32,000 nt of DNA from Nostoc sp. PCC 7120 = FACHB-418 (GTDB taxonomy: Bacteria; Cyanobacteriota; Cyanobacteriia; Cyanobacteriales; Nostocaceae): NCBI RefSeq assembly GCF_000009705.1, contig NC_003272.1, forward strand, positions 1,620,001 to 1,652,000. Reading direction: 5' to 3'. Positions 1,532 to 18,064 of this stretch are shown one piece after another. Position numbers and translations under genes: made by a program. Numbering within the stretch: the first letter of the stretch is position 1; the number at the start of each line of letters is the position of its first letter. The notes under the pieces were generated by a model. That model was given only the letters and a program-made list of their open reading frames with translations, made no database searches and was not told the origin of the DNA.

Positions 1532-1608
1532 TCCCCAATCCCCAATCCAAGGCAAAAGTCAAAAGAAAAAATCTTTTACCTTTTACCTTTTTACTTTCTT
1601 GTCCCCAA
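1532..1608. repeat. Short heptamer repeats in the petG-rsmD spacer
   Basis: tccccaa x2 at 1532-1545, cttttac/cttttta/ctttctt x4 at 1573-1600, and tccccaa at 1602-1608. Confidence 0.6.
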
Positions 1609-1611
1609 TCC

Positions 1612-2166: not shown

Positions 2167-2247
2167 TGGTCAATGGTCATTAGTCATTAGTCATTAGTTA
2201 TTAATCATTAGTCTACTGACAAGTGACAACTGACGACTGACAAACTA
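2164..2247. repeat. STRR-type heptamer array, 12 in-phase units, filling the whole rsmD-hisH spacer
   Basis: cattggt caatggt cattagt x3 tattaat cattagt ctactga caagtga caactga cgactga caaacta. The first unit contains the rsmD start codon (cat at 2164-2166). The array ends 3 nt before the hisH stop. Confidence 0.9.
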
Positions 2248-2250
2248 ATA

Positions 2251-2886: not shown

Positions 2887-2944
2887 TGACCTTCTCCTTG
2901 TAAATTGTTTATGGAGGGTTTTTCTATTCTAAATAATATTTTCC

Positions 2945-3457
2945 ATGAAGAAAAGAATTCTATTAACTTCTTTTGACACTTGGCTAGAAGATCAAAAGTC
3001 AAATTCCTCTGATGATTTATTATTTGAAGTCACTAAACTTAACTCACTTCCATTAGATTTACAATTTTTGCGCTTGTTACCCGTTGATATTGGGCTGGCC
3101 AGTTCCCTAGTAATCGCAAAAATAGAGGAATCCCAACCAGATTACATTATCTGTTGTGGCATGGCCGCAAGCCGGAAAAAATTAAGTGTAGAAGTGGGTG
3201 CTAGCTGTGGAGAAACCTTTTTACAGACCACAATTGATCTAGGAAAATTACTAATAGGAGCAACAGCAACTGATATTAGTGACGACTGCGGTAAATTTGT
3301 CTGCGAGGGTCTTTATTATTCCATACTGGACTACTTAGGACAAAAGAAACTATCAACTTATTGTTTTTTTGTTCATGTTCCCGTACTGAATCAAGATAAC
3401 TTGATAGAAATTCTCACAGATTTTGTATTAATTATTAACAATCTGGCACTTTTATAA
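2945..3457 (+). CDS. Peptidase C15 (pyroglutamyl peptidase)-like protein
   Basis: 170 aa. The Glu/Cys/His triad context resembles the C15 family: GMAASRKKLSVEVGA, CGKFVCEGLYYS and FFVHVP. Confidence 0.6.
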   Translation: MKKRILLTSFDTWLEDQKSNSSDDLLFEVTKLNSLPLDLQFLRLLPVDIGLASSLVIAKIEESQPDYIICCGMAASRKKLSVEVGASCGETFLQTTIDLGKLLIGATATDISDDCGKFVCEGLYYSILDYLGQKKLSTYCFFVHVPVLNQDNLIEILTDFVLIINNLALL

Positions 3458-3552
3458 ATTTATAAGCGTCCAGTCTGACGGGAATATGGGGAAGAAAATA
3501 GCAACCTGTTTTACCTAGTTGCCAATCTTTAATTCTCAATCCCCAGTTATTA

Positions 3553-3575
3553 TTGAATTTTGAATTTTTGAATTG
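3553..3575 (+). repeat. TTGAATT heptamer leader repeat ending 5 nt before the start codon
   Basis: ttgaatt ttgaatt tttgaattg, then tactt, then ATG 3581. The same element occurs at the same distance upstream of the sigma-like gene at 9070. Confidence 0.7.
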
Positions 3576-3580
3576 TACTT

Positions 3581-4945
3581 ATGTTCTCTTTATTACTAAG
3601 TCTTTTAGTGGCTCAATCTGCTCCTACTGCACCACCGCCTGAAGAAGTTGTACAACCTCAAGAAGTCCGTGCATTACCAGGACGCTTGGATGCAATCCCT
3701 ACATTTAATAGCAATAGTCCAGAATTAGTTTTAAGAGAAGGAATTTTACTTTCCACTTTTCCCCCGGCAGGCAAAAAAGTACCGTCAGCCCATTTGAATT
3801 ATCCTTTTCGTGGGCGATTTGATGTGTTTGCTCACCACATTGCTAGGGCGGAACCACCGGAAGATTTACGCTCCTTGTATTTAGGAATACTCCTGCATAA
3901 CCCGACATCCCAACAGGTGAAGGTGGATGTTTTACAAGGGGCGAGTTATTTAAGTCAACCGGATGCACCGTTTATTGAGTTGCCATCTTTGGTTGAGAAT
4001 AATTTAGGTAACGTATTTGCTGGCCCTGGTAGTCGCGCTATGGCTGATGTTTTAAGAGGACTGCGACAAGATATTTTCCCGGCTCAAATTGTCATACCAC
4101 CAGGGCAAAGTCGAATGCTCTTGAACCAACCTATACCTGTGCGAGAATTAACACCACCTTTAAATGGTCGCTCGACTTTGGCAAGACTACGGACTAATGG
4201 TACAGTCTATGCAGCTAGTTTGGCTATGTTTGCTCGTACCAATGCTGATGGTAGTGAACGATCGCCTACCTTGGAAGAATGGCAAACTTTACTAGAAAAT
4301 AGTGATGTGTCCGGGCCACGGGATAAAACTCCCACACCATTAGAAGCAACTGGTAAACCCAGAATTTATGGTCGTGTCGCTGGGGTGGCGCGCGGTTCTT
4401 ATTGGCGATCGTTTATAGTAGATAGTCCCAAAGCCAGGAATTTAACTATTCCCCAACCAGGACAGGCTTTTTCTTATGCTTTGAGTACTCTACATGGTGG
4501 TACTTTAGGGACTGGTCAAATTCAGAGTGCGCCGATGTTAGTACGTTATCCAGATACGGCTTATCGCGCTCATGGTAATTACGCTATTCAATATAGTTTA
4601 AAGTTGCCCTTGTATAACAATACTGCCAAGGCGCAAACTGTGAAGGTATCTGTGCAAACTCCCATTAAGGAAGACCGTTTAACTAAACAAGGTCTGCGCT
4701 TTTTTACTACACCCGCGCGTCAAACATTCTTCCGGGGGAGTGTGCGGATACGTTACCGAAATGATCAAGGACAGCAGCAAACTCGGCTGGTACATTTAGT
4801 TCAGAAGCGGGGTCAACCGGGGGAAGCATTAGCTACATTGAACATGAAAAAAGGCGATCGCCGTTTGGTAGAGGTAGACTTTCTCTATCCCCCCGATGCT
4901 TCACCACCACAAGTATTAACAGTTGGGACTGTGGCTAATCCTTAA
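3581..4945 (+). CDS. Conserved cyanobacterial secreted protein of unknown function (DUF3370-like, from memory)
   Basis: A 454-aa ORF with an N-terminal hydrophobic signal-like segment (MFSLLLSLLVAQSAPTAPP) and no recognisable catalytic motif. The family name is recalled only from its size and taxon range. Confidence 0.6.
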   Translation: MFSLLLSLLVAQSAPTAPPPEEVVQPQEVRALPGRLDAIPTFNSNSPELVLREGILLSTFPPAGKKVPSAHLNYPFRGRFDVFAHHIARAEPPEDLRSLYLGILLHNPTSQQVKVDVLQGASYLSQPDAPFIELPSLVENNLGNVFAGPGSRAMADVLRGLRQDIFPAQIVIPPGQSRMLLNQPIPVRELTPPLNGRSTLARLRTNGTVYAASLAMFARTNADGSERSPTLEEWQTLLENSDVSGPRDKTPTPLEATGKPRIYGRVAGVARGSYWRSFIVDSPKARNLTIPQPGQAFSYALSTLHGGTLGTGQIQSAPMLVRYPDTAYRAHGNYAIQYSLKLPLYNNTAKAQTVKVSVQTPIKEDRLTKQGLRFFTTPARQTFFRGSVRIRYRNDQGQQQTRLVHLVQKRGQPGEALATLNMKKGDRRLVEVDFLYPPDASPPQVLTVGTVANP

Positions 4946-4952
4946 TTAAGTG

Positions 4953-4984
4953 TAGGGGTTTAGGGGTTTAGGGGTGTAGGGGAA
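4953..4984. repeat. Octamer tandem repeat taggggtt x4
   Basis: taggggtt taggggtt taggggtg taggggaa, directly after the stop codon of the 454-aa gene. Confidence 0.8.
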
Positions 4985-5094
4985 ACAACTAATAATTAAA
5001 TCAAGACAGCTCATAAATAGTGTTCTTCTCCTAACTCCCATACCCCCATACCCAGTCACAGCAAGAGTTTCGGGCTTACAAGCGCGATATTCTT

Positions 5095-5814
5095 CTATAG
5101 TGTTTTTTCATCTCGCCACAAAGCGATACCACCTAACAAACCACTAATATTCGGAATGAGTTTGACATTTAAAGGTAGCTGAAAATTTACTCTTACGGCT
5201 TCACCACCACCGATATAAAGGTAATCATAGTTGAATAGTCGTTGTAGGGAGGCGATCGCTTTTTCTAAACGGCGATTCCATTTCTTCTGACCAATCTTAT
5301 CTAAAGTTGCTCTTCCTAGTTGTTCTTCGTAAGTTTCCCCTTTGCGAAAGGGATGATGTCCCATTTCCATATTCGGCACTAATTTACCATCGACAAACAA
5401 CGCGGAACCAAACCCCGTTCCCAAGGTAATTACCAACTCTACACCCTTACCTTTGATTGCACCAAAACCCTGCATATCTGCATCATTAATCACCCGTACA
5501 GGTTTATGTAACCGTTGCGACAGCGCCGTTTCTAAATCAAATCCAATCCAATCCGAGTCTAAGTTAACTGCCGTTTCGGTGACACCAGCACGCACCACAC
5601 CAGGAAAACCCACAGAAACCCGGTGAAATTCACCTTGAGCAGCAGCTAACACCATAATTGCATTAATGACAACCTCTGGTGTTGCAGGTTGGGGTGTATC
5701 AACACGCGCCCTTTCTGTTACAGGATTTCCCGTAATATCCAACACTAAAGCTTTAACACCACTACCACCAATATCAACCGATAAAGTGCGAATTGAGCCG
5801 TTATCTTCCACCAT
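5095..5814 (-). CDS. ppgK: ROK-family polyphosphate glucokinase
   Basis: 239 aa. ATP/phosphate-binding DIGGSGVK and ROK-type motifs (NDADMQGFG, TLGTGFGSALF). The size matches the short cyanobacterial PPGK that I recall being described in Anabaena PCC 7120. Confidence 0.75.
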   Translation of the reverse strand: MVEDNGSIRTLSVDIGGSGVKALVLDITGNPVTERARVDTPQPATPEVVINAIMVLAAAQGEFHRVSVGFPGVVRAGVTETAVNLDSDWIGFDLETALSQRLHKPVRVINDADMQGFGAIKGKGVELVITLGTGFGSALFVDGKLVPNMEMGHHPFRKGETYEEQLGRATLDKIGQKKWNRRLEKAIASLQRLFNYDYLYIGGGEAVRVNFQLPLNVKLIPNISGLLGGIALWRDEKTL

Positions 5815-6025
5815 TGAGTATTTACCTTTTTGTTAGGGACTGGGGATTGGGAGTAGAAATAAATAATTACAGATTAGTAAATAATATATGAAGCTGTATA
5901 GATAAGGGCTTCTAAAATAAGTTTCTCAGAGGAAATACATATACACTTTATATTTTTGTAATATCTATGTAATATGCTTGAATTACTAAAAAGCCATATC
6001 AGCCAGAAGTGCAAAGATAACACCA

Positions 6026-6862
6026 ATGAGACGAATTGCGATCGCCGAAAATACCTTAAAAATTCTTAACATAGGTAACTACATTTGTGCTGATGGCAAT
6101 CAAGTTTATATCAGCCAAGAATTGGAATATTGTTTGTATTTAACAAAGTGCTACAGCCCCGAAAATTTGGCAAAGATTGAAACTAAGGTGCTGAATAGCC
6201 TTCCTCGTTTTTCAGCAACTGAATTTGCAGTCAGGAATGAGACAACATTAATAGGAGCCGAACGCATAGTCAAAAGTGAAAAATTTCAACAAGTTGGTGT
6301 TTTGAATTTTGCTTCTGCGAAAAACCCAGGAGGTGGATTTATCAGAGGGGCGCAGGCTCAGGAAGAAAGTTTAGCCAGAAGTTCAGCGCTTTACAAAAGC
6401 CTGTTGAAATGTCCTGAATATTATAATTTTCATCGCCATGAGCGATCGCTTTTGTACTCAGATTGGATGATTTATTCTCCCAGTTGTCCAGTCTTCAAAA
6501 ACGATGATGGTGAACTATTAGCACAGCCCTATGTTGTAGATTTCATCACCAGTCCAGCACCAAATGCAGGCATGATTCAAAAAAATCAACCGCACCTCAG
6601 CGTTAAAATACCCCAAGTGCTTATGAATCGAACATCAAAGCTGTTGAGTTTGGCAAGCAACCAAGGCTGCGATGCTTTGGTTTTAGGTGCTTGGGGATGT
6701 GGAGTCTTTAGAAATGACCCAGCGATAGTTTCCCAAATATTTGCAGATTTATTATTACCAGGTGGTCAATTTTGGGGCAGATTTAAAAGTGTAATTTTTT
6801 CCGTCCTTGACAATAGTAAACAACAAGCTATTTTTACAGAGTTTGACAGGAGATTTTCTTGA
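6026..6862 (+). CDS. Bacterial-type poly(ADP-ribose) glycohydrolase-like macrodomain protein (DUF2263/TIGR02452-like)
   Basis: 278 aa. PARG signature GGG-X7-QEE (NPGGGFIRGAQAQEES, nt 6329-6367) and a diphosphate-binding loop GAWGCGVFRNDP. Confidence 0.75.
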   Translation: MRRIAIAENTLKILNIGNYICADGNQVYISQELEYCLYLTKCYSPENLAKIETKVLNSLPRFSATEFAVRNETTLIGAERIVKSEKFQQVGVLNFASAKNPGGGFIRGAQAQEESLARSSALYKSLLKCPEYYNFHRHERSLLYSDWMIYSPSCPVFKNDDGELLAQPYVVDFITSPAPNAGMIQKNQPHLSVKIPQVLMNRTSKLLSLASNQGCDALVLGAWGCGVFRNDPAIVSQIFADLLLPGGQFWGRFKSVIFSVLDNSKQQAIFTEFDRRFS

Positions 6863-6967
6863 TCAACTGCTAGAAATTTACAGAAGACTATTCCATTTTC
6901 TCCATAGGTAATAAACTTGTTTAGGAATCAAACAGGAATCCTATATAGGAATCCGATTTGATTTCTG

Positions 6968-7150
6968 TTGGCGTAGCCTGCGCTAGCGCATAAAATTCTC
7001 AGTATCTGTAGGGTGGGCAATGCCCACCAAAACCATGAGCCGGTGGGCATTGCCCAACGCCACTTGCTCCAAGCCGGGAAACCCTTTCAGCAGTTACTCC
7101 ACTTGGGGAAACCCCAAGACCGTACTGCTTCACCAACGCAGTGGCTCCCC
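6968..7150. repeat. Cluster of dispersed Nostoc-type intergenic repeats
   Basis: ttggcgtagcctgcg resembles the repeats at 8743 and 14989. Near-palindromes are ggtgggcaatgcccacc (7012-7028) and ggtgggcattgcccaac (7042-7058). They are followed by gggaaaccc.../ggggaaaccccaagaccg... modules. Confidence 0.6.
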
Positions 7151-7200: not shown

Positions 7201-7228
7201 ATCCCAATCCCCAATCCCCAATCCCCAA
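7201..7228. repeat. Heptamer repeat (a/t)cccCAA x4 abutting a start codon
   Basis: atcccaa tccccaa tccccaa tccccaa, immediately followed by ATG 7229. Confidence 0.8.
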
Positions 7229-8017
7229 ATGCACAGTTTCATTCCCCCAGAACGGTTTTTCGCCTACCTCACCTGGAAAGAAATTGAGGAAATGCCAAAT
7301 AAGGAGAATGTCGTTATCATCCAGCCAGTAGGGGCAATTGAACAGCATGGACTCCATCTACCATTGATTGTTGATGCTGCCATTGGTGTGGGGGTTTTGG
7401 GGAAAGCTTTATCTAAACTTGATGCTAGCATTCCAGCTTATGCTTTACCCACTCTTTATTATGGTAAATCCAATGAACACTGGCATTTTCCGGGAACGAT
7501 TACCCTGAGTACAGAAACGCTGACAGCGACAATTATGGAAGTGGCAGAAAGCATTTACCGCGCTGGGTTTAGAAAGTTGGTGTTAATGAACTCCCACGGA
7601 GGACAACCCCAAGTTATGCAAATGGTGGCGCGAGATCTGCACGTAAAGTATGGTGATTTTGCAGTTTTTCCTTTGTTTACTTGGCGTGTACCCCACATTA
7701 CTAAAGAATTATTATCACCTAAGGAAGCAATACAAGGAATGCACGCGGGAGATGCGGAAACTAGTATTATGCTGGCGATTTTGCCAGATCAGGTGCAACT
7801 AGATAAAGCCGTGGCAGAATATCCCCCAGAAAAACCTGAAGGTAGCCTATTAAGTTGGGAAGGTAGATTACCTGTGGCTTGGGTAACAAAAGATATTAGT
7901 AAAAGTGGTGTGATTGGCGATGCGACAACTGCAACCAAAGAAAAAGGCGATCGCATTTTAGAATCCGTTTCTGATGGTTGGGTAGAAGTCATCAAAGAAA
8001 TTTACGCCTTTCGCTAA
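7229..8017 (+). CDS. Creatininase (creatinine amidohydrolase) family protein
   Basis: 262 aa. Family motifs PVGAIEQHGLHLPL, LMNSHGGQ and HAGDAETS. Confidence 0.8.
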   Translation: MHSFIPPERFFAYLTWKEIEEMPNKENVVIIQPVGAIEQHGLHLPLIVDAAIGVGVLGKALSKLDASIPAYALPTLYYGKSNEHWHFPGTITLSTETLTATIMEVAESIYRAGFRKLVLMNSHGGQPQVMQMVARDLHVKYGDFAVFPLFTWRVPHITKELLSPKEAIQGMHAGDAETSIMLAILPDQVQLDKAVAEYPPEKPEGSLLSWEGRLPVAWVTKDISKSGVIGDATTATKEKGDRILESVSDGWVEVIKEIYAFR

Positions 8018-8040
8018 AGGAGACAAGGGGATTAAGGCAA

Positions 8041-8101
8041 CAACTAACAACTGTACAGACGCGATTAATCGCGTCTCTGAAAACTGACAACTGACAACTA
8101 A
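8041..8101. repeat. caactga/caactaa heptamers interrupted by a perfect 20-bp palindrome
   Basis: caactaa caactgt (8041-8054), the palindrome agacgcgatt|aatcgcgtct (8057-8076), then aaactga caactga caactaa (8081-8101). Confidence 0.85.
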
Positions 8102-8204
8102 CTAAATTTGCTAGTGTAGGGTTAAGTGCAGTAGTTATCGAAACTGTTTCACAGTTGACGGGCGATAAGTTGCTAAACCACATTAATAATTAGAGATAGC
8201 AGTT

Positions 8205-8708
8205 ATGACGGCATTTGAACCAAATAGTCTCCGTTCTTATAGCCAAGAAGATGTACAGCGAATTTTACAGCTGGCGATCGCCCGGCAAGCTGATGACCAA
8301 GATAAAGATTTTAGTTATGAGCAATTGTTAGAGATTGCTACTGAGTTAGAAATCTCACCAGAAGCTCTCAAGTTAGCGGAAATAGATTGGCGATCGCAAC
8401 ACCACGAATTAAGTCAAAAACAAGCTTTTAATACTTACCGCATGACAAAGTTTAAAAAGCGCCTTGGTAATTATGCGATCGTCAATGGCTTTTTACTGTT
8501 GGTGGATTTTGTCGGTGGTGGAACGGTTACTTGGTCGTTATACTTGCTACTGTTTTGTGGTTTGGCAGTAGGGTTGGATGTGTGGAATACGTTTCAAACT
8601 AAAGGCGAAGAGTATGAAATGGCTTTCCAGCGCTGGAATCGCAAACATCAAATTAAACAAACCATCAACAGCTTTGTGAATAAGTGCTTTAAAGCGTTAC
8701 AAGCTTAA
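8205..8708 (+). CDS. 2TM-domain membrane protein of unknown function
   Basis: 167 aa. Soluble acidic N-terminal half, then two adjacent hydrophobic helices (YAIVNGFLLLVDFVGGG / WSLYLLLFCGLAVGLDVW). Confidence 0.7.
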   Translation: MTAFEPNSLRSYSQEDVQRILQLAIARQADDQDKDFSYEQLLEIATELEISPEALKLAEIDWRSQHHELSQKQAFNTYRMTKFKKRLGNYAIVNGFLLLVDFVGGGTVTWSLYLLLFCGLAVGLDVWNTFQTKGEEYEMAFQRWNRKHQIKQTINSFVNKCFKALQA

Positions 8709-8710
8709 AC

Positions 8711-8814
8711 CAATTCGCAATTCGCAATTCGCAATTCGCAATAGCCTGCGGCATCTCTTACGAGAGGCTAACCGCCAACGCGTAGCATCTCGTAGAGAAG
8801 GCTAACGCCAACGC
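8711..8814. repeat. caattcg heptamers x4 plus dispersed repeat modules (left flank of the sigma/CHAT cluster)
   Basis: caattcg x4 (8711-8738), caattcgcaatagcctg (8732-8748), agcctgcggcat (8743-8754), ggctaaccgccaacgc (8766-8781) and ggctaacgccaacgc (8800-8814). Confidence 0.85.
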
Positions 8815-9047
8815 AACTTGCCTTTTCCGTGTTTTAACGGGGATTCAGCGCAAATAATTAAGGGTAAGATTAGCTAGAAAACTCTCTGAAGTTAAGTTTT
8901 GATAGAGTTTTCGATTTGCTTATCTATACTTGCCCATCTATACTTAGTACCAGTGTGAAAAAAGAATGTGACAGATACATACGGACATACATTTATTCTG
9001 TTTGGCTTTCCTAATTTTGAATTTTGTAGCTTGCTTCCCGTAGGGTA

Positions 9048-9064
9048 TTTTGAATTTTGAATTG
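9048..9064 (+). repeat. TTGAATT heptamer leader repeat ending 5 nt before the start codon
   Basis: tttgaatt ttgaattg, then ctatc, then ATG 9070. A further copy, ttttgaattttg, lies at 9015-9026. Confidence 0.7.
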
Positions 9065-9069
9065 CTATC

Positions 9070-10275
9070 ATGCGTCCTCGCCAAAGTATCGCTGAAATGT
9101 TTTCTACCTTCCTGCAATTTGATGCCGATCGCTTCGGTGGTTGGGTGTATGATGGCAAATTGCGGCGGAGCATTCAGAATTGCTTGGGACAAATATCACA
9201 AACGCAACACTCAGAGAATTTTTGGGCGATTTACTGGCATAAAAACTGGCAGACTCAGCCTAGTTCCTTAGCGGAAGGACACCTATCCGCTTATTTGCAA
9301 GAAACCTGTTATTGGGCTGCACAGAGGACAATTCCCCAGTTTGCCAGTATTCAGTGTACATTATCTGACTGTTTTCAAATGGCGATCGCTGAAGTACCAA
9401 AAATCTTAAAAGGTTGCGACCCTGACCAAAGAGCTAGCCTCAAAAGCTATGGTACTGTGGCTTTTGGGAATATTATTCGGGATGCTTTACGTCAAAAGCA
9501 AGAAATAGATTTTTGTAATGATTGGGCATTGTTGCTGAAGTTGAGCCGCAAGCAACTACAGGAATCATTAAAAAGTTCTGGGCTAACAGATGAAACAATG
9601 GCGAGTTATTTGTTAGCTTGGAAATCCTTTACAGACGGCTACATCCTCACTAAATCACCAAAAGCGCGGAAATTACAAAAACCAGAGGATGATACTTGGG
9701 ATATTATCGCCCAACTTTATAACCGCGATCGCCTAACACAACTCAACCCCTCAGTCCGCGAGTGTAACCGGGAAACCTTAGAACAATGGTTGCTTTTTTG
9801 TGCGAAACAAGCACGTTCTTATTTATATCCTGTGGTGTCTTCCCTAAATATTCCCAAGGTGGGTCAAGCAGATGGGGAATGGCAAGATGATTTACCAGAC
9901 ACCAGTAATCGTGAATCTTTACTGGCAGATTTAATCGCCGCAGAAGAAGCCGAAACTCAAAAAAATCAGCAACAAGAAATCTATAATCTCTTAGTGACTA
10001 CATTGGCAAAACTGCCCCCGCAATCACAACAGTTGTTGCAACTGTACTATCAGCAAGGACTAACCCAACAACAAATCGCCAAACAGCAGGAAATTCAGCA
10101 ATATCAAGTATCTCGGCAATTATCTAAAACCAGAGAATCTTTACTTTTAGCAATTACTAAATGGAGTCAGGAAAAATCGCATATTTCCCCGACTTCCAAC
10201 GTGGTTAAGCATATTAGCGCAATATTAGAGGAATGGTTACAGAATTATTTCCGTAATCTCTCTGCAAAGGAGTAG
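9070..10275 (+). CDS. Sigma-70 family-like RNA polymerase sigma factor (atypical, Q-rich)
   Basis: 401 aa. Region-2-like segment (SDCFQMAIAE...LKSYGTVAFGNIIRDALRQ) and a region-4 HTH (LPPQSQQLLQLYYQQGLTQQQIAKQQEIQQYQVSRQLSKTRESLL). Confidence 0.7.
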   Translation: MRPRQSIAEMFSTFLQFDADRFGGWVYDGKLRRSIQNCLGQISQTQHSENFWAIYWHKNWQTQPSSLAEGHLSAYLQETCYWAAQRTIPQFASIQCTLSDCFQMAIAEVPKILKGCDPDQRASLKSYGTVAFGNIIRDALRQKQEIDFCNDWALLLKLSRKQLQESLKSSGLTDETMASYLLAWKSFTDGYILTKSPKARKLQKPEDDTWDIIAQLYNRDRLTQLNPSVRECNRETLEQWLLFCAKQARSYLYPVVSSLNIPKVGQADGEWQDDLPDTSNRESLLADLIAAEEAETQKNQQQEIYNLLVTTLAKLPPQSQQLLQLYYQQGLTQQQIAKQQEIQQYQVSRQLSKTRESLLLAITKWSQEKSHISPTSNVVKHISAILEEWLQNYFRNLSAKE

Positions 10276-10280
10276 TAATT

Positions 10281-11411
10281 ATGTCGTCATTCTGTGTTCC
10301 ACCCACTCAACTTTGGTTAGAGGTATCTGCTGGCATTCAAGACCAATCTTGGCAGCAAAGCCAAACTTGCCTTAATCCCAGTGGTCGTTGGCATATTTTT
10401 CTCAACCAAGTATGCCTGAGTACCTTTTTACCTTGGCTGCAAGCTGAGTACTCACCAGAAGCTACTCTTGCCACAGTTCCCAATAGTTGGGAATTCGTCA
10501 ACGGGACTGCTATAAATTTAGATACAAAACGCCTCATCCTCATTCCCGATAAAAGCCTAGACACAAGAGAATTTCATGTCCCCCAAGAATGGATAGATAT
10601 TCCTCAATGGGCAGGAGATTATTATCTAGCAGTACAAGTCAGTCCAGACGGGGAATGGCTAAGAATTTGGGGCTATACCACCCATGAGCAATTGAAAAAT
10701 CAAGGTAGTTACGATCCTCAAGAAAGGACTTACTCCTTAAAAGCCTATCAAATGATTGAGGATTTGAATGTACTTTGGGTAGTACGTCAACTATATCCTG
10801 AAGAACAAACACAAGTAGCGATCGCTCCTTTAGCTGAGTTATCACCCACCCAAGTAGATAACCTCTGGCAAAGGTTAAGTAATCCAGCAATTACGAACCC
10901 ACGCTTAGAACTGCCCTTTGAAATCTGGGGGGCTTTATTAGCTAAGTCACAACAACCACAACCAAAATCAGCACTTGTCAACTTGCGTCAGTGGTTACAA
11001 AATACCTTGACAAATAGCTGGCAAACCGTCGAAACTCTTCTGGGAACACAGCCAGATTTTGCCTTCAGCTTTCGTCAAGCCGATGATACAGCTGAACGAT
11101 CAATCCAGCGCGTTAAGGTAATCGACCTACCAAGCGGTCAAACCATAGTGCTAATGTTGACTTTGACACTAGAAACAGATGGTAGAGTAGGAATCCGCGT
11201 CCAATTGTCTCCCAGAGAACGAGGAATTTATTTACCTGAGAATATGAGATTAGAGTTAATTTCTGCCTCAGGGCAAGTTGTCCAATCAGTAGAAGCACGA
11301 GAAACAGACAACTCCATCCAACTTAAACGCTTCCGATGTCCACAAAACACCCGCTTTAGCCTTCAGCTAATTCTCGATGATTTCAGTTTTGTTGAAGAGT
11401 TTGAAAGTTAG
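10281..11411 (+). CDS. DUF1822-like cytoplasmic protein
   Basis: 376 aa with no TM segment. It starts 5 nt after the sigma-like gene stop. The N-terminal FLNQVCLSTFLPWLQAEY pattern and the size match my recollection of the cyanobacterial DUF1822 family. Confidence 0.65.
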   Translation: MSSFCVPPTQLWLEVSAGIQDQSWQQSQTCLNPSGRWHIFLNQVCLSTFLPWLQAEYSPEATLATVPNSWEFVNGTAINLDTKRLILIPDKSLDTREFHVPQEWIDIPQWAGDYYLAVQVSPDGEWLRIWGYTTHEQLKNQGSYDPQERTYSLKAYQMIEDLNVLWVVRQLYPEEQTQVAIAPLAELSPTQVDNLWQRLSNPAITNPRLELPFEIWGALLAKSQQPQPKSALVNLRQWLQNTLTNSWQTVETLLGTQPDFAFSFRQADDTAERSIQRVKVIDLPSGQTIVLMLTLTLETDGRVGIRVQLSPRERGIYLPENMRLELISASGQVVQSVEARETDNSIQLKRFRCPQNTRFSLQLILDDFSFVEEFES

Positions 11412-11447
11412 TTATGGCGTTTCTTAATCTACTGGCATACTGAGTAC

Positions 11448-13787
11448 ATGAGTAAACTGATCGTCCTAAATTTAGGAAAAGGAAACTTACACCAAGGATT
11501 TCCGGCGGTCGTAGCTCAACTTTGGCAAACAGATGCTCCTGCTCCTATGCAATTCACGGGGGGATTACCTGCTGCACCACAATTAGAGCATCTTTATCAA
11601 CGTTGGCAACAAATGTACACAGCTTTGTATGCCAATTTGGGATGGCGTAGTCATGACATCGCCGATTTTGAAATTGAAGAAGAAGATATTACTCATATTT
11701 CCCAAGCAGAGTTTGATCATCTCTGCCAAGAATTGCAACAAAGTTTAAACGCATGGTTGAATAGTTCGCCGTTTCTCAATATTGACCGTAAGTTAAGAAC
11801 TCAACTCTCACCCACAGAGGAAATTCGCTGCATTATTGCGGCTGAATCCCATCAGGTTTTACAGCTTCCTTGGTGTTTGTGGCATTTTTTTGACGATTAT
11901 CCCCAAGCGGAAATTGCTCTCAGTCCACCAGAATATACTCGGTCAATTAAAAATTATCCCCAAAAAACTAAAGGTAAGGTGAGGATTTTAGCTATTTTAG
12001 GCGATCGCCACCATATTGATCTAGAAAAAGACCAAACTTTACTCCAGCAATTACCCAATGCGGAACTCACATTTTTAGTGGAACCCAATCGTTCCCAACT
12101 AACAGAACAATTATGGCAATCGGGTTGGGATATTCTCTTTTTTGCTGGTCATAGTTCCAGCCAAGGGAAAGGGCGGATGCTGCTCAATTCTGGCGAGACT
12201 TTGACCATTGATCAATTAAAGTATGGCTTGCAAAAGGCGATCGCTCAAGGGTTGCAATTGGCAATTTTTAACTCTTGTGATGGTTTGGGTCTAGCCCAGG
12301 ATTTAGCCGATTTACATTTACCCCAGGTGATTGTCATGCGCGAACCTGTACCAGACAGGGTGGCGCAGGAATTTTTAAAGCATTTCTTGGCGTTGTTTGC
12401 ACGGGGTAAAACTTTATATGCAGCCGTCAGAGAGGCGCGGCAAAGATTACAATCTCTAGAACAGGATTTTCCCTGTGCTACTTGGTTGCCAATTATTTGC
12501 CAAAATCCAGCCGAAATTTCCCCGACTTGGCAGGATTTGTCTGGTCAAAGACCAGGGTTAAAGTTACCACGCCCCAATTTCCAACAGCTACCAGTAGTTG
12601 GCTTAAGTAGCTTAATTATTACTTTTATTATCGTATTAATACGGTGGTCAGGTGGACTACAACTATTAGAACTAGGGGCATTTGACCAACTAATGAGGCT
12701 GCGACCTAAAGAAGAACCAGACTCCCGGCTATTGGTAGTAACTATCACCGACCAAGATATTCAAGCCCAAGGAAAAGAACCGCGCCAAGGTTCCCTTTCT
12801 GATAAACATCTCAACTTACTACTCACAAAACTCGAACAATACCAACCAGCAGCTATTGGTTTAGATATATACCGTGATTTTCCCGTGAGTGCTAACCAAC
12901 CAGAATTAGCCAAACGGATGCAGAAAAGCGATCGCCTCATTGCTATTTGTAAACGTGCTGATCCGGAATCCGACCCTACAGGTATTGCACCACCGCCAGA
13001 AATACCAGAAACACGGTTGGGTTTTAGCGACTTTGTGGAAGATGAGGATAGTGTGATGCGTCGCCATCTCTTGGCGATGACTCCCAACCCAATTTCGCCA
13101 ACTTGTACCCCTGCTTATGCTTTTAGTGTGCAGTTAGCGTTTTTGTATCTCCAAGCCCAGGGAATTACAACCAAATTTACCCCAAATTGGGACTTGCTAT
13201 TGGGGAAAAAAACCTTCCCACGCTTACAGAATCGGGCTAGTGGTTATCAATCAATAGATGCCCAAGGTACTCAGATTTTACTAAATTATCGTTTTGCGCC
13301 TTCAGTAGGGGCGATCGCTCGCCAAGTTACCCTGAGCCAAATCTTGAACGGACAAATTAACCCCAACGCCATCAAAAACCGCATTATTTTGATTGGTGTC
13401 ACCAGTAATAGCACTAGCGATTACTGGCCTACACCTGATAGTAAATCTCCTACAGCGATCGTTCCCGGCATTGTGATTCAAGCGCAAATGGTCAGCCAGC
13501 TAATCAGCGCCGCTTTAGATAACCGACCCCTATTATGGGTTTGGACTCAATGGGGTGAAATCTGCTGGATTTGGAGTTGGTCTTTGACTGGTGGTCTACT
13601 GGCGTGGTACATTCCCAGAAAGACTTACTTAAGTATTGCTGTAACTATAGGAACAATCACCTTATCTGGACTATGTTTTATCCTGTTAATTCAAGGTGGC
13701 TGGATACCTTTAGTCCCACCGATGATTGCATTAGTAGTCACTAGCGCTCAATTTGCTTACATCAGCCAAAAATTACAGAAATTGTAG
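11448..13787 (+). CDS. CHAT (caspase-like protease) - TM - CHASE2 sensor - 3TM membrane protein
   Basis: 779 aa. CHAT core with His235 (FFAGHSS, nt 12150-12152) and Cys277 (IFNSCDG, nt 12276-12278). TM helix at about residues 381-400. CHASE2 motifs: LLVVTITDQD, IGLDIYRDFP, DSVMRRH, ILIGVTSNSTSDYWPTP and PGIVIQAQMVSQLI. Three C-terminal TM helices and no C-terminal output domain. Confidence 0.85.
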   Translation: MSKLIVLNLGKGNLHQGFPAVVAQLWQTDAPAPMQFTGGLPAAPQLEHLYQRWQQMYTALYANLGWRSHDIADFEIEEEDITHISQAEFDHLCQELQQSLNAWLNSSPFLNIDRKLRTQLSPTEEIRCIIAAESHQVLQLPWCLWHFFDDYPQAEIALSPPEYTRSIKNYPQKTKGKVRILAILGDRHHIDLEKDQTLLQQLPNAELTFLVEPNRSQLTEQLWQSGWDILFFAGHSSSQGKGRMLLNSGETLTIDQLKYGLQKAIAQGLQLAIFNSCDGLGLAQDLADLHLPQVIVMREPVPDRVAQEFLKHFLALFARGKTLYAAVREARQRLQSLEQDFPCATWLPIICQNPAEISPTWQDLSGQRPGLKLPRPNFQQLPVVGLSSLIITFIIVLIRWSGGLQLLELGAFDQLMRLRPKEEPDSRLLVVTITDQDIQAQGKEPRQGSLSDKHLNLLLTKLEQYQPAAIGLDIYRDFPVSANQPELAKRMQKSDRLIAICKRADPESDPTGIAPPPEIPETRLGFSDFVEDEDSVMRRHLLAMTPNPISPTCTPAYAFSVQLAFLYLQAQGITTKFTPNWDLLLGKKTFPRLQNRASGYQSIDAQGTQILLNYRFAPSVGAIARQVTLSQILNGQINPNAIKNRIILIGVTSNSTSDYWPTPDSKSPTAIVPGIVIQAQMVSQLISAALDNRPLLWVWTQWGEICWIWSWSLTGGLLAWYIPRKTYLSIAVTIGTITLSGLCFILLIQGGWIPLVPPMIALVVTSAQFAYISQKLQKL

Positions 13788-13860
13788 ACAGAGGAAGTGT
13801 ATTAAAAGATGAGGCAAATAAAAAACCAGTAATTTGGTTGATGACACAACGGTTTCTGCT

Positions 13861-14631
13861 ATGAAAAAGGTATTTCGGTTTTCAACTACCACTCTTATCT
13901 GTGCGATCGCTTTAGGTATATGTAATTTACCTGGAATGGAGCAAATTGGGCAGGCACAAACCCTCACATCAACCACCAAAATTAATTATGTTCCTCCCAC
14001 AGCCCAAGACAAACCAGGAGAACCTAGAGGACGGCGCAGAGGTGGCGGAAGTCGCGGCCCCTGTAAGCAGTATGAAACCCTCACAGCTTTAGTACCCATC
14101 AATAGTACAGGAACAAAAGAATCAGTTTGGGGACAATCCACAGATCAAAACCCAACATTTTGGTTTTTTGTACCTGACAAACTCACTCCCAAGGTTCCTA
14201 TTGAGTTTGTTATCCAAGACGAAGCAGATAATTACGTTTATCAGACCAAATTTAATCCCTCAGAAACACAACCAGGAATTATCAGCTTAACGGCCAAGCC
14301 GCAAACACCCCTCGTTGCTGGTAAATCTTATCATTGGACTTTTTCTATTTATTGCGACCCAGAAAAACCCTCAGCTTCCGTCTACGTTCGCGGCTCCATC
14401 ACACAAGTTGCTTTAAACCCAACACTACAAAAGCAACTGGAATTAGCCAAAACTCCTCTAGAACGAGCAACCTTTTTTGCTAAAAATGGGATCTGGTACA
14501 ATGCTTTGACAACCTTAGGAGAACAAATCCAAAACACCAAAACGATAGATTCACAAATCACATCCGCTTGGACTCACTTACTGAAACAAGTTAACCTGCA
14601 TAACTCTGCTTCTGCTGAGATTGTTCGCTGA
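13861..14631 (+). CDS. Secreted DUF928-like protein
   Basis: ATG 13861 gives MKKVFRFSTTTLICAIALGICNLPG, a typical signal peptide. The track start at 13834 adds 9 non-hydrophobic residues. PP-X-GEPRGRRRGGGSRGPC motif at nt 13993-14064, then FWFFVP. The family name is from memory. Confidence 0.7.
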   Translation: MKKVFRFSTTTLICAIALGICNLPGMEQIGQAQTLTSTTKINYVPPTAQDKPGEPRGRRRGGGSRGPCKQYETLTALVPINSTGTKESVWGQSTDQNPTFWFFVPDKLTPKVPIEFVIQDEADNYVYQTKFNPSETQPGIISLTAKPQTPLVAGKSYHWTFSIYCDPEKPSASVYVRGSITQVALNPTLQKQLELAKTPLERATFFAKNGIWYNALTTLGEQIQNTKTIDSQITSAWTHLLKQVNLHNSASAEIVR

Positions 14632-14715
14632 TACTGTTAGCGCAGAAGCGGCTAAAAATATAGAACTCAGCTTTAGGGAACACCAAAAAATAAATTATCC
14701 AAAATTGATAGTTTA

Positions 14716-14780
14716 GTAGGGTGCGTCAGTGTCAAAAAACCTAACTACACCAAGAACTTATTCATACTGACGCACCCTAC
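14716..14780. repeat. Perfect 15-bp inverted repeat with a 35-nt spacer
   Basis: gtagggtgcgtcagt (14716-14730) is the exact reverse complement of actgacgcaccctac (14766-14780). Confidence 0.9.
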
Positions 14781-14988
14781 ATTTGGAATACTTTTTCTCT
14801 GGAAGTCCCTTAAAAGCAATTGAGTGATTAAGAATTCCCAATATTTGCTATTGGGAATTGCGCCATTAATTTGGAAACACACATTGAGATATCTTAATAA
14901 AGATAAATTTAGATTAAGACCATCCCTAGTTATAAATTAATGTCATGCCTGAGATAGATGTTAAGAAAAGTTATTGCAAATTGCGTAA

Positions 14989-15094
14989 AGCCTGCGGCAT
15001 AGCTGCACTCAGAGCAGAGCAGAGCGGGAGCATCGTTGCGAATTGCGTTGGCGTTAGCCTACTCTGCGAGTTCTCCACAGGCTATTGCGAATTG
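14989..15094. repeat. Dispersed repeat modules, inverted relative to 8732-8814 (right flank of the sigma/CHAT cluster)
   Basis: agcctgcggcat (14989-15000, same strand as the copy at 8743). gcgttggcgttagcc (15045-15059) is the reverse complement of 8800-8814. caggctattgcgaattg (15078-15094) is the reverse complement of 8732-8748. Confidence 0.85.
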
Positions 15095-15097
15095 TTT

Positions 15098-15676
15098 TTA
15101 TTTCTCCCGTAGTTGCCTTTCTATCAGCATTTGCGGTTCGACATTCTCCACATTCTTTATAGCTGATAGTTGAGCTATTCCTTTGAGAGCATCAGCAATT
15201 TTATTTGTTTTGGCACGTAACCAACCAGCATTAGGCGCATAGGCTAGGGTTTTCGCTACTTCATAACCTGCTTGATTGATGGCAGCTTGTTGTGATTCAA
15301 TATCAACACCTTCTGTAAAACGGATGAAAACTAGCCCAGTAGGCACAGTCAGAGTTCCGTTATTTTCTAAGGTATATACTGGGCTGAGTGTGTCTGTATT
15401 GCCAATATTCTGGATTGTTGCATCAGGTTCACCGGAAAAAATAGCGATCGCTCCCTCACCCTCATTCAAGATTAAAATAGCCTGGGATGGTATCGTGCTA
15501 GCTTGTTTGTAATGTGCAGCATAGTATCCAGACTGGCGATTGTAGAAGACACTCGCCTTTGTGCCAACAGGAATTTGTTGGGGATACTCAATAAAATAGT
15601 CTCTTTGGGGTCTCACTTCAGCAATTAAAGGTAGAGAGTACGCCTGTAAAAATAATTCACCAGGAAAATAAAACAT
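15098..15676 (-). CDS. Hypothetical protein whose C-terminal half resembles the PrcA N-terminal prodomain
   Basis: 192 aa with no signal peptide. Residues about 96-190 (PVYTLEN...GLVFIRFTEGVDIESQQAAINQAGYEVAKTLAYAPNAGWLRA...VENVEPQML) align by eye with PrcA residues about 108-190 (PIVYTENLFVKFGHEEDVSFCQEILGRYGLTIKRQLEYARNAYFVSA...VELCHPELV). Confidence 0.6.
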   Translation of the reverse strand: MFYFPGELFLQAYSLPLIAEVRPQRDYFIEYPQQIPVGTKASVFYNRQSGYYAAHYKQASTIPSQAILILNEGEGAIAIFSGEPDATIQNIGNTDTLSPVYTLENNGTLTVPTGLVFIRFTEGVDIESQQAAINQAGYEVAKTLAYAPNAGWLRAKTNKIADALKGIAQLSAIKNVENVEPQMLIERQLREK

Positions 15677-16027: not shown

Positions 16028-18016
16028 ATGGTTCATGTCCGCTATGGTGGTCAGAACGGTGAACAGTACGAACTAGCAATTAGTGAAAATCATATTGTAG
16101 TGCGGACTGAAAGCCGCAGCTCGCTAATTAGCGATCGCCCCTTTGAAGCCGCCCCTGTTTCCTCCCAAGCCCGTAATATCCTCAATCAGTTCGAGTTATC
16201 CACTCGTTTCAGCCAAGCGGGTGTAGAAGTTCTCCATGTGAAAGAACCGAGCCAGGATGGTGCTTTGCGCGATACAGCCAGGGAAATTCTCAATCAAGAA
16301 CCGGAAGTGCAATTTGCTGGACGTGTGTTAATTGATCCAGTCAGTCAACAACCCATAGTTTACACAGAAAACCTTTTCGTGAAGTTTGGCCACGAAGAAG
16401 ACGTTAGTTTCTGCCAAGAAATTTTGGGACGCTACGGCTTAACAATTAAACGTCAACTAGAATACGCCCGTAATGCCTACTTTGTCAGCGCACCCCCCAA
16501 TACTGGTTTAGCCATCTTTGATATTGCCGAAAGGTTGCTCAACGAGGAATCGGTGGAATTGTGTCATCCTGAATTGGTGCGGGAATTTAGGCAACGTCAG
16601 GCATTTTCCCAACAATGGCACCTTAAGGAAACCACAATTGGGGGTAAGACTATCAAGGCTCATGCCAATGTTGAGGCGGCATGGAAGTTGAGCGATGGTA
16701 CGGGAACGATTATTGCCATTATTGACGATGGTGTGGATGTTGACCATGAAGAATTCCGTTCTTCTGGTAAGATTGTTGCCCCTAGAGATGTCACACGCAA
16801 AACTAACTTTCCCACCCCAGGAAACCGAGATAATCACGGTACTGCTTGTGCAGGTGTCGCTTGTGGTAATGGCAACTTTGGGGCTTCTGGTGTAGCGCCT
16901 GGGGCTAAGTTAATGCCCATTCGTTTCGTTTCCGCCCTGGGTTCCCAAGATGAAGCCGACTCTTTTGTCTGGGCTGCTCAAAATGGTGCGGATGTAATTT
17001 CCTGTAGTTGGGGGCCACCAGATGGTACATGGTGGGATGATAAAGACCCCCTACACAAGCAGAAAGTACCTCTACCCGATTCCACAAGACTAGCAATGGA
17101 CTATGCCATCAATAAGGGGCGTAATGGCAAAGGATGTGTGATTTTATTCGCTGCGGGTAATGGTAACGAAAGCGTAGATAATGACGGCTACGCCAGCTAT
17201 GAAAAGGTAATAGCTGTCGCGGCTTGTAACGACTTTGGTACTAGAAGCGCTTATAGTGATTTTGGTCAAGCCGTCTGGTGTGCCTTCCCTAGTAACAACG
17301 GTAACCCTTCCCAAACCCCTGGTATTTGGACTGCCGATCGCTCTGGTGTAGTTGGCTATAATTCTGGTAGTACCAATCTCGGTGATCAAGCAGGTAATTA
17401 TACAAATAGTTTCGGTGGTACTTCTAGCGCCTGTCCGGGTGCGGCTGGTGTCGCTGCCTTGATTCTCTCCCGCAATCCAAATCTGCGTTGGGATGAGGTC
17501 AGAGATATTATTAAACGTTCATGCGATCGCATTGATCCAGTCGGTGGTAACTATAACGCTGAAGGCCGTAGCCCATTCTACGGTTATGGTCGGATCAATG
17601 CCCTCAAAGCGGTAGAATTGGCACTACCAGCACAACCTGAGCCAGTCAGCATTTTTACAGCCGTCCAGGATGTCCCCATTAATGATTTGCAGACATCTCA
17701 ACTCAGTTTAGCGATCGCCAACACCAACCCCATCAAATCTATCAAAGTTACAGTAGACATCGAGCATACTTACATTGGTGACTTAATAGTTAGCCTCAAC
17801 CCCCCTGGAGAATGTGGTGTATTACCGATCATCCTCCACGACCGCAAAGGTGGAGGCGCAGATGATATCAAACAAACTTACGATGAGGTGAGTACACCAG
17901 GACTGACTGCTTTGAAGGGTAAAATTCCTCAAGGAACCTGGACTCTAGAAGTAGCAGATAAAGCACAGGCGGATACAGGGAAGATTCGCAGCTTGACTAT
18001 TGAACTTGGGTTTTAG
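16028..18016 (+). CDS. prcA: Calcium-dependent subtilisin-like serine protease PrcA (S8 peptidase with C-terminal proprotein-convertase P-domain)
   Basis: 662 aa. Catalytic Asp in IAIIDDGVD, His in HGTACAGVA, Asn in FAAGNGN and Ser in GGTSSACPGAAG. P-domain motifs are HTYIGDLIVSLNPPG and GTWTLEVADKAQADTGKIRSLTIELGF. This matches my memory of Anabaena PrcA. Confidence 0.9.
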   Translation: MVHVRYGGQNGEQYELAISENHIVVRTESRSSLISDRPFEAAPVSSQARNILNQFELSTRFSQAGVEVLHVKEPSQDGALRDTAREILNQEPEVQFAGRVLIDPVSQQPIVYTENLFVKFGHEEDVSFCQEILGRYGLTIKRQLEYARNAYFVSAPPNTGLAIFDIAERLLNEESVELCHPELVREFRQRQAFSQQWHLKETTIGGKTIKAHANVEAAWKLSDGTGTIIAIIDDGVDVDHEEFRSSGKIVAPRDVTRKTNFPTPGNRDNHGTACAGVACGNGNFGASGVAPGAKLMPIRFVSALGSQDEADSFVWAAQNGADVISCSWGPPDGTWWDDKDPLHKQKVPLPDSTRLAMDYAINKGRNGKGCVILFAAGNGNESVDNDGYASYEKVIAVAACNDFGTRSAYSDFGQAVWCAFPSNNGNPSQTPGIWTADRSGVVGYNSGSTNLGDQAGNYTNSFGGTSSACPGAAGVAALILSRNPNLRWDEVRDIIKRSCDRIDPVGGNYNAEGRSPFYGYGRINALKAVELALPAQPEPVSIFTAVQDVPINDLQTSQLSLAIANTNPIKSIKVTVDIEHTYIGDLIVSLNPPGECGVLPIILHDRKGGGADDIKQTYDEVSTPGLTALKGKIPQGTWTLEVADKAQADTGKIRSLTIELGF

Positions 18017-18064
18017 GGGGATTGGGGACTGGGGATTGGGGACTGGGGATTGGGGACTGGGTAA
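18016..18064. repeat. STRR1-type heptamer array (tggggat/tggggac alternating), 7 units
   Basis: gggggat tggggac tggggat tggggac tggggat tggggac tgggtaa. The array starts inside the prcA stop codon (TAG 18014-18016). Confidence 0.9.

Follow-up and report, generated by a model that had tools for sequence, protein, structure and literature searches.

Gene content of the locus and conservation of its arrangement

The 32,000-nucleotide (nt) stretch of Nostoc sp. PCC 7120 = FACHB-418 analyzed here (NC_003272.1, positions 1,620,001 to 1,652,000; hereafter, the window) harbors four co-directional genes encoding, in this order, a sigma-70-family protein, a DUF1822 protein, a membrane-bound putative receptor protease and a DUF928 protein (Table 1). 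The receptor protease combines an N-terminal domain termed EACC2 (Kaur, Iyer, Burroughs and Aravind, eLife 2021, PMC8195603; hereafter Kaur et al.) with a caspase-like CHAT protease domain and a CHASE2 sensor domain. Open reading frame (ORF) calls bore out the coordinates of the four genes and the gaps of 5, 36 and 73 nt between them (the third measured from the ATG at 13861) that had been reported in an earlier note made on this DNA from the sequence alone. In a scan of positions 8600-15200, no intrinsic terminator was identified in the three short gaps of the cassette, and terminator and sigma-70 promoter predictions across the scanned region were uninformative. The best explanation overall, which we hold tentatively and with a little less than even confidence, is that the four genes constitute one signalling cassette.

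The genomic coupling of the four families was assessed in two samples. The first comprised 24 DUF1822-centred loci drawn from one-genome-per-species contigs. All four families were present in 20 of these loci, following the window order in 19, and one locus with all four families carries DUF928 inverted upstream (L014). Some 20 Nostocales genomes keep the gene order. The flanks of the loci keeping the cassette are otherwise unrelated; the only locus sharing the flanking genes is that of Nostoc parmelioides FACHB-3921 (L018), to which the window proteins are 92-99% identical. The four-gene order is repeated in Leptolyngbya BL-A-14, Scytonema and a Joint Genome Institute metagenome contig, and a Limnoraphis locus presents DUF1822, CHAT/CHASE2 and DUF928 with no sigma gene called upstream. 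The second sample consisted of 62 loci obtained through a DUF928-profile scan of metagenome contigs and annotated with local hidden Markov models. An EACC2-CHAT-CHASE2 gene was located directly upstream of DUF928 in 41 of the 45 loci with at least 2.4 kb of upstream sequence, and DUF1822 was also found upstream of the receptor gene in 33 of the 39 evaluable ones. The synteny check proposed in the earlier note was thereby run, and the order recurs in many genomes and metagenome loci. Because the same order is seen in dozens of loci with unrelated flanks, the arrangement is, on comparative sequence grounds, judged to lie far beyond chance. The family is large and paralogous, and cassettes of this kind are frequent in cyanobacteria, the sigma and DUF1822 clusters numbering more than 1000.

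In all evaluable DUF1822-centred loci, the sigma-DUF1822 pair has a caspase-fold protease as its neighbor, and four protease architectures are represented. The EACC2+CHAT+CHASE2 form is found in most loci, TPR-CHAT proteins occur in two (L021, L024) that are devoid of CHASE2 and DUF928, and a Peptidase_C14 protein is encoded directly upstream of the pair on plasmid pP880101 of Rippkaea orientalis PCC 8801. An extra short CHAT protein of ~460 amino acids (aa) is encoded directly upstream of the sigma gene in some loci. In five loci (L051, L058, L059, L064, L066) the pair is divergent from the receptor gene yet adjacent to it. Two orthologous Nostoc loci contain insertions of ~2.5 kb (L016) and ~1.5 kb (L019) between the DUF1822 and CHAT-CHASE2 genes, which may be mobile elements.

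Table 1. Features of the window and of fetched loci (L numbers). Residue numbers refer to the encoded proteins.
Locus	Feature	Coordinates	Strand	Remarks
Window	Sigma-70-family gene	9070-10275	+	401 aa; N-terminal extension 1-62; sigma-2 ~66-148; helical sigma-3-like domain ~151-252; conserved disordered linker 256-282; sigma-4 ~281-369; C-terminal helix
Window	DUF1822 gene	10281-11411	+	376 aa, soluble; N-terminal alpha+beta domain; low-confidence linker ~222-272; C-terminal Ig-like beta-sandwich 274-375
Window	CHAT+CHASE2 receptor-protease gene	11448-13787	+	779 aa
Window	EACC2+CHAT module of the 779-aa protein	11448-12557	+	Cytoplasmic; EACC2 residues 1-190; CHAT ~191-370
Window	First transmembrane segment (TM1), CHASE2 and C-terminal hydrophobic segments of the 779-aa protein	12594-13787	+	Pfam, hydropathy
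Window	DUF928 gene	13861-14631	+	256 aa from ATG; alternative TTG start at 13834
Window	Intergenic stretch 5' of the sigma gene	8709-9069	+	Presumed promoter/5' untranslated region
Window	192-aa ORF	15098-15676	-	No Pfam match
Window	S8 subtilase gene	16028-18016	+	Proprotein-convertase P-domain; no obvious signal peptide
Window	Heptamer array, AGTCAAC x17	22305-22424		Intergenic
Window	Heptamer array, GGGGACT	18017-18061		Intergenic
Window	Heptamer array, CAATTCG	8711-8742		Intergenic
Window	Heptamer array, TCATTAG	2163-2213		Intergenic
Window	Heptamer array, CCCAATC	7203-7228		Intergenic
L092	Peptidase_C14, sigma and DUF1822 genes	2309-7140		Protease 795 aa; sigma 397 aa
L037	CHAT-cyclase-CHASE2 fusion and DUF928 genes	152-4861		Fusion 972 aa
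L016	Insertion	9147-11673
L019	Insertion	9144-10673
L027	CHASE2-cyclase, CHAT-CHASE2 and two DUF928 genes	3115-5046, 11802-13556		Lusitaniella
L024	TACGA-N13/14-TTTATGCA site	2780-2805
L052	TACGA-N13/14-TTTATGCA sites	2289-2313, 1534-1558
L060	TACGA-N13/14-TTTATGCA site	2483-2507
L058	TACGA-N13/14-TTTATGCA site	5264-5288	-
L059	TACGA-N13/14-TTTATGCA site	5292-5316	-
L064	TACGA-N13/14-TTTATGCA sites	3150-3174, 4765-4789	-
L066	TACGA-N13/14-TTTATGCA site	5274-5298	-
L035	Second CHAT gene	8785-11451	-
L039	Second CHAT gene	7817-10531	-
L042	Second CHAT gene	7422-10109	-
L083	Second CHAT gene	3039-5420	-
L085	Second CHAT gene	3514-6123	+
L095	Second CHAT gene	4112-5461	+

The putative receptor protease

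CHASE2 is a widespread bacterial sensor domain for which we know of no ligand and, to our knowledge, type III-E CRISPR systems are the only setting in which a signalling role has been defined for bacterial caspase-like CHAT proteases. The third gene product of the cassette matches both Pfam families, CHAT with an E-value of 2.2e-19 (residues 200-346) and CHASE2 with an E-value of 4.4e-68 (residues 392-717); no solved structure matched the CHAT-CHASE2 protein by sequence. The catalytic dyad is intact, as had been read from the sequence, with His235 (codon 12150-12152) in the motif FFAGHSS and Cys277 (codon 12276-12278) in the motif FNSCDG. Conservation of the dyad among homologues had been set beforehand as a test, and it held: His235 is conserved in 98% and Cys277 in 100% of 64 distinct homologues. 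Hydropathy analysis locates TM1 at residues ~383-404, after basic residues, and additional hydrophobic segments at residues ~703-770. The position of TM1 and the preceding basic residues therefore place CHAT in the cytoplasm and CHASE2 outside, in support of the topology proposed earlier.

The 370-aa EACC2+CHAT module was identified in 1579 clusters (50% identity, E-value at or below 1e-30), embedded in proteins of 390-1841 aa in which its partners vary and include CHASE2, nSTAND1+WD40, pentapeptide repeats and PsbP-like domains. EACC2+CHAT is a constant unit with many alternative sensors, as expected for a transducer. A triple fusion of CHAT, an adenylate/guanylate cyclase and CHASE2, preceded by an ShlB/FhaC-type outer-membrane transporter and followed by DUF928, was observed in L037, and TPS-domain (haemagglutinin-like) genes flank the cassette in L028, L061 and N. 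punctiforme pNPUN03.

EACC2+caspase is fused to nSTAND1 NTPases, WD40 and pentapeptide repeats, as is typical of predicted conflict systems, and the published interpretation of these proteins (PMC8195603) follows that frame. The cassette would then be a conflict or programmed-cell-death system, with the protease as an effector triggered by invader or damage signals and the sigma factor and DUF1822 as a mere accompanying response. The occurrence of copies on cyanobacterial plasmids, some of them conjugative, and the large size of the paralogous family point in the same direction. None of the four proteins, however, matched a PADLOC defence model, the window copy resides in an ordinary chromosomal setting, among genes for transporters, kinases and peptidases and away from any mobile-element genes, and CHASE2 with a secreted partner is better suited to environmental or cell-cell sensing than to sensing of an intracellular invader. 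We hence regard a conflict role as quite unlikely.

The sigma factor and its DUF1822 partner

Matches to Pfam Sigma70_r4 (E-value 4.4e-7) and to the general sigma-70 model of NCBIfam, TIGR02937 (E-value 1.7e-33, residues 74-359), agree with the earlier description of the first gene product as an unusual sigma-70-family protein. Hydropathy reveals no transmembrane (TM) segment. The 1486 homologues are all ~400 aa long, relatives carry the NCBI name 'group 3/4 sigma-70', and conservation within the family is high over all 401 residues. An AlphaFold2 (AF2) model built with 49 sequences (predicted local distance difference test, pLDDT, 82) yields the layout given in Table 1, in which the N-terminal extension is structured as a beta-hairpin and helices. 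The top Foldseek matches of the model are full-length SigD, sigma-32, sigma-S, SigB and sigma-28, over 320-350 columns. Because of the helical domain at residues 151-252 and these matches to full-length group 1-3 sigma factors, the protein is modelled as a three-domain, group-3-like factor, and not as a typical extracytoplasmic function (ECF) or RpoE type. A two-domain sigma-2/sigma-4 identity of the ECF kind (group 4) was considered and ruled out by the conserved helical domain between the two. The earlier comparison with the Craspase and CalpS systems had implied an RpoE/ECF-type sigma factor, which the sigma-3-like domain of the model and its group 1-3 fold matches contradict.

The second gene product is a full-length match to Pfam DUF1822 (PF08852; E-value 6.7e-115), the sole family matched, and 1345 homologues were found. 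With this full-length match and no TM segment detected by hydropathy, it is the soluble protein that had been anticipated. In the AF2 model (50 sequences, pLDDT 85), the linker between its two domains has low confidence and is conserved nonetheless, with the motifs NL.QWLQN..WQ and AFSFRQ. Such conservation without predicted structure is what one typically sees where a partner binds or a protease cuts, and this feature of the model lends support to a protease acting on the protein. In Foldseek searches, neither the whole model nor its N-terminal domain had a match, and the matches otherwise obtained were generic Ig-like ones; no solved structure in the PDB matched DUF1822 by sequence. In Kaur et al. 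(PMC8195603), TRADD-N+TPRs is the label of several proteins that NCBI names 'DUF1822 family', some of them fused forms ('HTH+TRADD-N+TPRs'), and a helix-turn-helix (HTH)/sigma-type domain is therefore physically linked to DUF1822-type proteins in these fusions. The short DUF1822 forms so labelled align to the N-terminal domain of the window protein, in which neither TRADD_N nor TPR was matched by Pfam even at an E-value of 10; the AF2 model is likewise devoid of TPR, and TRADD-N is not among its best Foldseek matches. A class I anti-sigma identity (helical or zinc-binding anti-sigma domain, ASD) was also rejected, as PF08852 was the only match and no such domain was found. One anti-sigma entry does appear among the fold matches, the RsgI4 sensor domain (rank 35, E-value 0.04, 85 columns), which, given its 85 columns, fits the generic Ig-like matches to the modelled C-terminal sandwich, the aligned coordinates not being reported by Foldseek.

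Several features tie the two proteins together. The sigma and DUF1822 genes are nearly always 2-8 nt apart or overlapping, which suggests translational coupling, and their products fall into matched size classes: sigma factors of ~400 aa occur with DUF1822 proteins of 366-430 aa, and proteins of ~210 aa with DUF1822 proteins of 306-357 aa. The short DUF1822 forms do not contain a ~95-residue insert and keep the N-terminal domain, the linker motif, which is thus common to both forms, and the C-terminal domain. When aligned to the long sigma factor with hhalign, the ~210-aa proteins match in the region-4 HTH only; their Pfam matches are sub-threshold, and weak profile matches were obtained to the ECF factors SigK (E-value 0.009) and RpoE (E-value 0.025) in the PDB. 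On these sequence comparisons, the ~210-aa proteins encoded upstream of short DUF1822 genes are probably sigma-like.

The conserved segments of the sigma factor bear on an alternative in which its processing resembles that of pro-sigma-E by SpoIIGA and of pro-sigma-K by SpoIVFB in Bacillus. CHAT would cut the N-terminal extension (residues 1-62) or the linker of the sigma factor itself, and DUF1822 would be a scaffold or adaptor, not an inhibitor. The extension is highly conserved, structured and absent from ordinary sigma factors, the linker at 256-282 is conserved and disordered, the size classes of the two proteins co-vary, and the TRADD-N label given to NCBI DUF1822-family proteins (PMC8195603) is that of an adaptor. 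The extension is, however, modelled as part of the fold (pLDDT ~89) and not as a detachable peptide, and the linker occupies the sigma-3.2-finger position, where it could be conserved for contacting RNA polymerase. Pro-sigma processing hence appears unlikely, if somewhat less so than a conflict role.

DUF928 and a second CHAT protease

The fourth gene product matches Pfam DUF928 (E-value 8.7e-54) and carries the conserved motif G.P.GR..GG.SRG.C; no solved structure matched it by sequence. As had been proposed, its N-terminus (MKKVFRFSTTTLICAIALGICNLPG) resembles a signal peptide. The window protein ends in EIVR*YC (14626-14640), versus PIVPCC in most family members, and the stop codon thus removes the C-terminal CC motif; the same short form is present in L018. 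The most divergent DUF928 genes adjoin genes for CHASE2 histidine kinases devoid of CHAT (L084, L085), and DUF928 is for this reason considered to go with the sensor and not with the protease. Two tandem DUF928 genes accompany a CHASE2-cyclase and a CHAT-CHASE2 protein in a Lusitaniella locus (L027), and two DUF928 copies are also present in L059; DUF928 copies may increase with the number of CHASE2 receptors.

Of 37 metagenome loci, 25 contain a gene for a second CHAT protease no more than 5 kb away from DUF928, as do 11 of 20 genome loci (examples in Table 1). Its product is either a TPR-CHAT protein of ~870-900 aa or a shorter protein of ~460 aa, and a signal-peptide-like N-terminus is seen in most copies. 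The gene is often directly convergent with DUF928 and is found also in loci combining DUF928 with CHASE2 histidine kinases; the window and L018 are both devoid of it. Speculatively, these sequences could indicate a periplasmic proteolytic step involving DUF928.

A putative pathway from receptor protease to sigma factor

The patterns of variation across loci point to the sigma factor and DUF1822 as a constant output, to the caspase-fold protease as transducer, to exchangeable sensors and to DUF928 as an accessory of CHASE2. We tentatively favor a receptor-protease pathway leading from CHASE2 and DUF928 via CHAT to the sigma-DUF1822 pair, and put its likelihood just below one half. The extracytoplasmic CHASE2 domain, together with secreted DUF928, would sense a signal that passes via TM1 to the cytoplasmic EACC2+CHAT module. 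The activated protease would then act on the dedicated three-domain sigma factor in complex with DUF1822, its obligate partner, most likely by cleaving DUF1822, as adaptor or inhibitor, probably at the conserved flexible linker, or else by remodelling the complex in another way. The sigma factor would thus be freed or activated, and transcription switched. The sensor-protease-sigma logic put forward in the earlier note gains comparative support from the pairing of sigma and DUF1822 with caspase-fold proteases of differing architecture and from the association of DUF928 with CHASE2; the cleavage step and the anti-sigma role of DUF1822 remain putative.

Several points weigh against this pathway. 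No known anti-sigma domain was detected in DUF1822 by Pfam, PDB sequence search or Foldseek, and the earlier proposal of DUF1822 as a candidate anti-sigma factor is not supported, there being no sequence or fold likeness to known anti-sigma domains. The element under regulation could be the conserved N-terminal extension of the sigma factor. For the clade of the window, the search for an autoregulatory promoter motif was negative, and the substrate specificity of CHAT is not predictable from these data; binding of the sigma factor to DUF1822, cleavage, its substrate and the sign of regulation are steps that we infer. In addition, six evaluable CHAT-CHASE2 + DUF928 loci (L037, L056, L057, L061, L069, L081) have no sigma or DUF1822 gene nearby, which means that the receptor protease is able to serve other outputs or to work in trans.

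These six loci also speak for mere co-location, in which the sigma factor and DUF1822 would be an ordinary pair transcribing their neighbors, and CHAT-CHASE2 and DUF928 would act on envelope or cell-division targets. HetF is a CHAT-like protein acting on targets of this kind. The receptor shows weak NCBIfam similarity to HetF, and the secreted CHAT proteases often found beside DUF928 hint at a separate periplasmic proteolytic function. The HetF match, however, reaches only 31 bits versus a cut-off of 1200 (NF045509), and HetF was rejected as an identity for the receptor. Simple co-regulation also explains poorly why the pair neighbors a caspase-fold protease of one of four unrelated architectures in every evaluable DUF1822-centred locus. 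Co-location is therefore the explanation we deem least probable.

A more elaborate form of the receptor-protease pathway, a relay across two compartments, appears improbable, on a par with pro-sigma processing. DUF928 would be an obligate periplasmic co-receptor or pro-ligand of CHASE2 and, in most relatives, would be processed by the secreted CHAT protease encoded next to it. CHASE2 would turn on EACC2+CHAT, which would cut DUF1822 at the conserved flexible linker. DUF1822 would represent a new class of sigma-binding adaptor or anti-sigma factor, and the cut would release the three-domain sigma factor. If true, the relay would provide the first ligand handle for a CHASE2 domain and the first pathway outside CRISPR systems that runs from a caspase-type protease to a sigma factor.

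Relation to published predictions and known systems

The association and the outline of its mechanism have already been published as a prediction, and the locus is a further member of the class concerned. Kaur et al. (PMC8195603) described proteins with a constant EACC2 and caspase domain and variable C-termini, including CHASE2+TM, whose genes lie beside those of an 'ECF sigma' and DUF1822, and they proposed, on purely computational grounds, a stimulus-induced activation of the caspase with the sigma factor as final transcriptional step, within a frame of autoproteolysis and conflict systems. The window cassette shares the families and order of this EACC2-caspase/sigma/DUF1822 class and its testable defining features: CHAT, the variable CHASE2+TM C-terminus and the adjacent sigma and DUF1822 genes. 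It differs in that the sigma factor, 'ECF' in their account, is modelled here as three-domain and group-3-like, and in that DUF1822, TPR in their account, is modelled by AF2 as an alpha+beta domain, a linker and an Ig-like sandwich devoid of TPR. The example operon of Kaur et al. also contains a TPR-CHAT gene that is absent from the window. DUF928 is not named by them and probably corresponds to their 'TM+beta_rich+TPRs' gene. The main text of a paper on ECF classification (PMC7826278) does not mention CHAT, caspase, DUF1822 or CHASE2. No experimental study of the sigma/DUF1822/CHAT-CHASE2 association was found in the literature searched, where DUF1822 appears in two papers and DUF928 in one, which fits the earlier statement that DUF1822, CHAT-CHASE2 and DUF928 have no experimentally defined role.

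Among systems coupling proteolysis to sigma factors, the type III-E Craspase combines gRAMP/Cas7-11 and TPR-CHAT/Csx29 with Csx30, Csx31 and RpoE, and takes target RNA as its input. The cassette resembles it in the genetic linkage of a CHAT-family protease to a sigma factor and to a sigma-associated protein of otherwise unknown fold, and some of its relatives use TPR-CHAT (L021, L024). In contrast to Craspase, the window has no Cas-like genes among the ORFs scanned, no CRISPR-like repeat array and no PADLOC match, the input would come through a CHASE2 membrane sensor, the protease consists of an N-terminal domain, CHAT and CHASE2 with no TPR, and the sigma factor is not of the RpoE-type ECF kind. 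DUF1822 matched no solved structure beyond generic Ig-like folds; this search involved no direct comparison with Csx30. In the CalpL-CalpT-CalpS system, a SAVED-Lon protease activated by cyclic tetra-adenylate (cA4) cleaves the anti-sigma factor CalpT and releases the ECF sigma factor CalpS. Here too a signal-activated cytoplasmic protease, an intermediate partner and a sigma factor are encoded together, yet the cassette has CHAT in place of Lon and SAVED domains, its sigma factor is three-domain, and DUF1822 would have to take the anti-sigma part. The likeness to both systems drawn in the earlier note thus holds for the protease-partner-sigma logic; the cassette belongs to neither system.

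Anti-sigma proteolysis (RseA by DegS/RseP; RsiW, RsiV) and pro-sigma processing also transmit an extracytoplasmic signal to sigma activity via proteolysis. The cassette differs from them in that sensor and protease are one polypeptide, the protease is a cytoplasmic cysteine protease, and the candidate target, DUF1822, is soluble and not a membrane-spanning anti-sigma factor with an ASD. With CHASE2 receptors such as histidine kinases, cyclases and Ser/Thr kinases (PF05226) it has in common the sensor domain and its TM-flanked topology; its output is a protease located N-terminal to the sensor, not a kinase or cyclase.

New with respect to the published prediction are the DUF928-CHASE2 coupling, the matched sigma/DUF1822 size classes, the non-TPR model of DUF1822 and the frequent secreted second CHAT. 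The value of the locus lies therefore in making that prediction testable and in what is hinted about DUF928 and about how the sigma factor and DUF1822 are built up from domains, and not in discovery of the association. It offers a compact and genetically tractable test case, comprising four genes, a clear catalytic dyad and a sigma factor of its own through which activity could be read out, which could show how an extracytoplasmic signal reaches transcription through a caspase-type protease and could assign functions to DUF1822, DUF928 and the EACC2 domain.

Upstream sequences and genomic surroundings

A tandem TTTTGAATTTTGAA is located at 9048-9061, directly before the sigma start codon, and was also noted at ~9005-9025. 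A related block, TATACTTGTTTTTGAAGGTTCATCCTTTTGAATTC-ATG, is retained 5' of the sigma gene in Nostoc orthologues whose flanks are unrelated. The tandem could be a promoter -10 region, a 5' untranslated region element or a translational element. Dyads and k-mers were analyzed for enrichment in the sequences preceding 20 diverse sigma genes, and no family-wide promoter motif stood out above shuffled sequences. The motif TACGA-N13/14-TTTATGCA was found at 12 sites in the fetched loci versus 0.8 expected, nine of them upstream of a sister-clade sigma gene and in its orientation (Table 1), and is absent from the window; it is a candidate cognate or autoregulatory promoter of that sister clade.

The cassette is flanked by genes for a creatininase, a two-transmembrane (2TM)-domain protein, a 192-aa ORF and an S8 subtilase. 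The latter two were rejected as cassette parts, as only the nearest relative (L018) shares them. The remainder of the window is ordinary chromosomal content, including an ATP-binding cassette (ABC) transporter, histidine kinases, DUF3370 and a PARG-like gene. The only repeats detected in the search for CRISPR-like arrays were short intergenic heptamer arrays (Table 1), which resemble the short tandemly repeated sequences often met in genomes of Nostoc.

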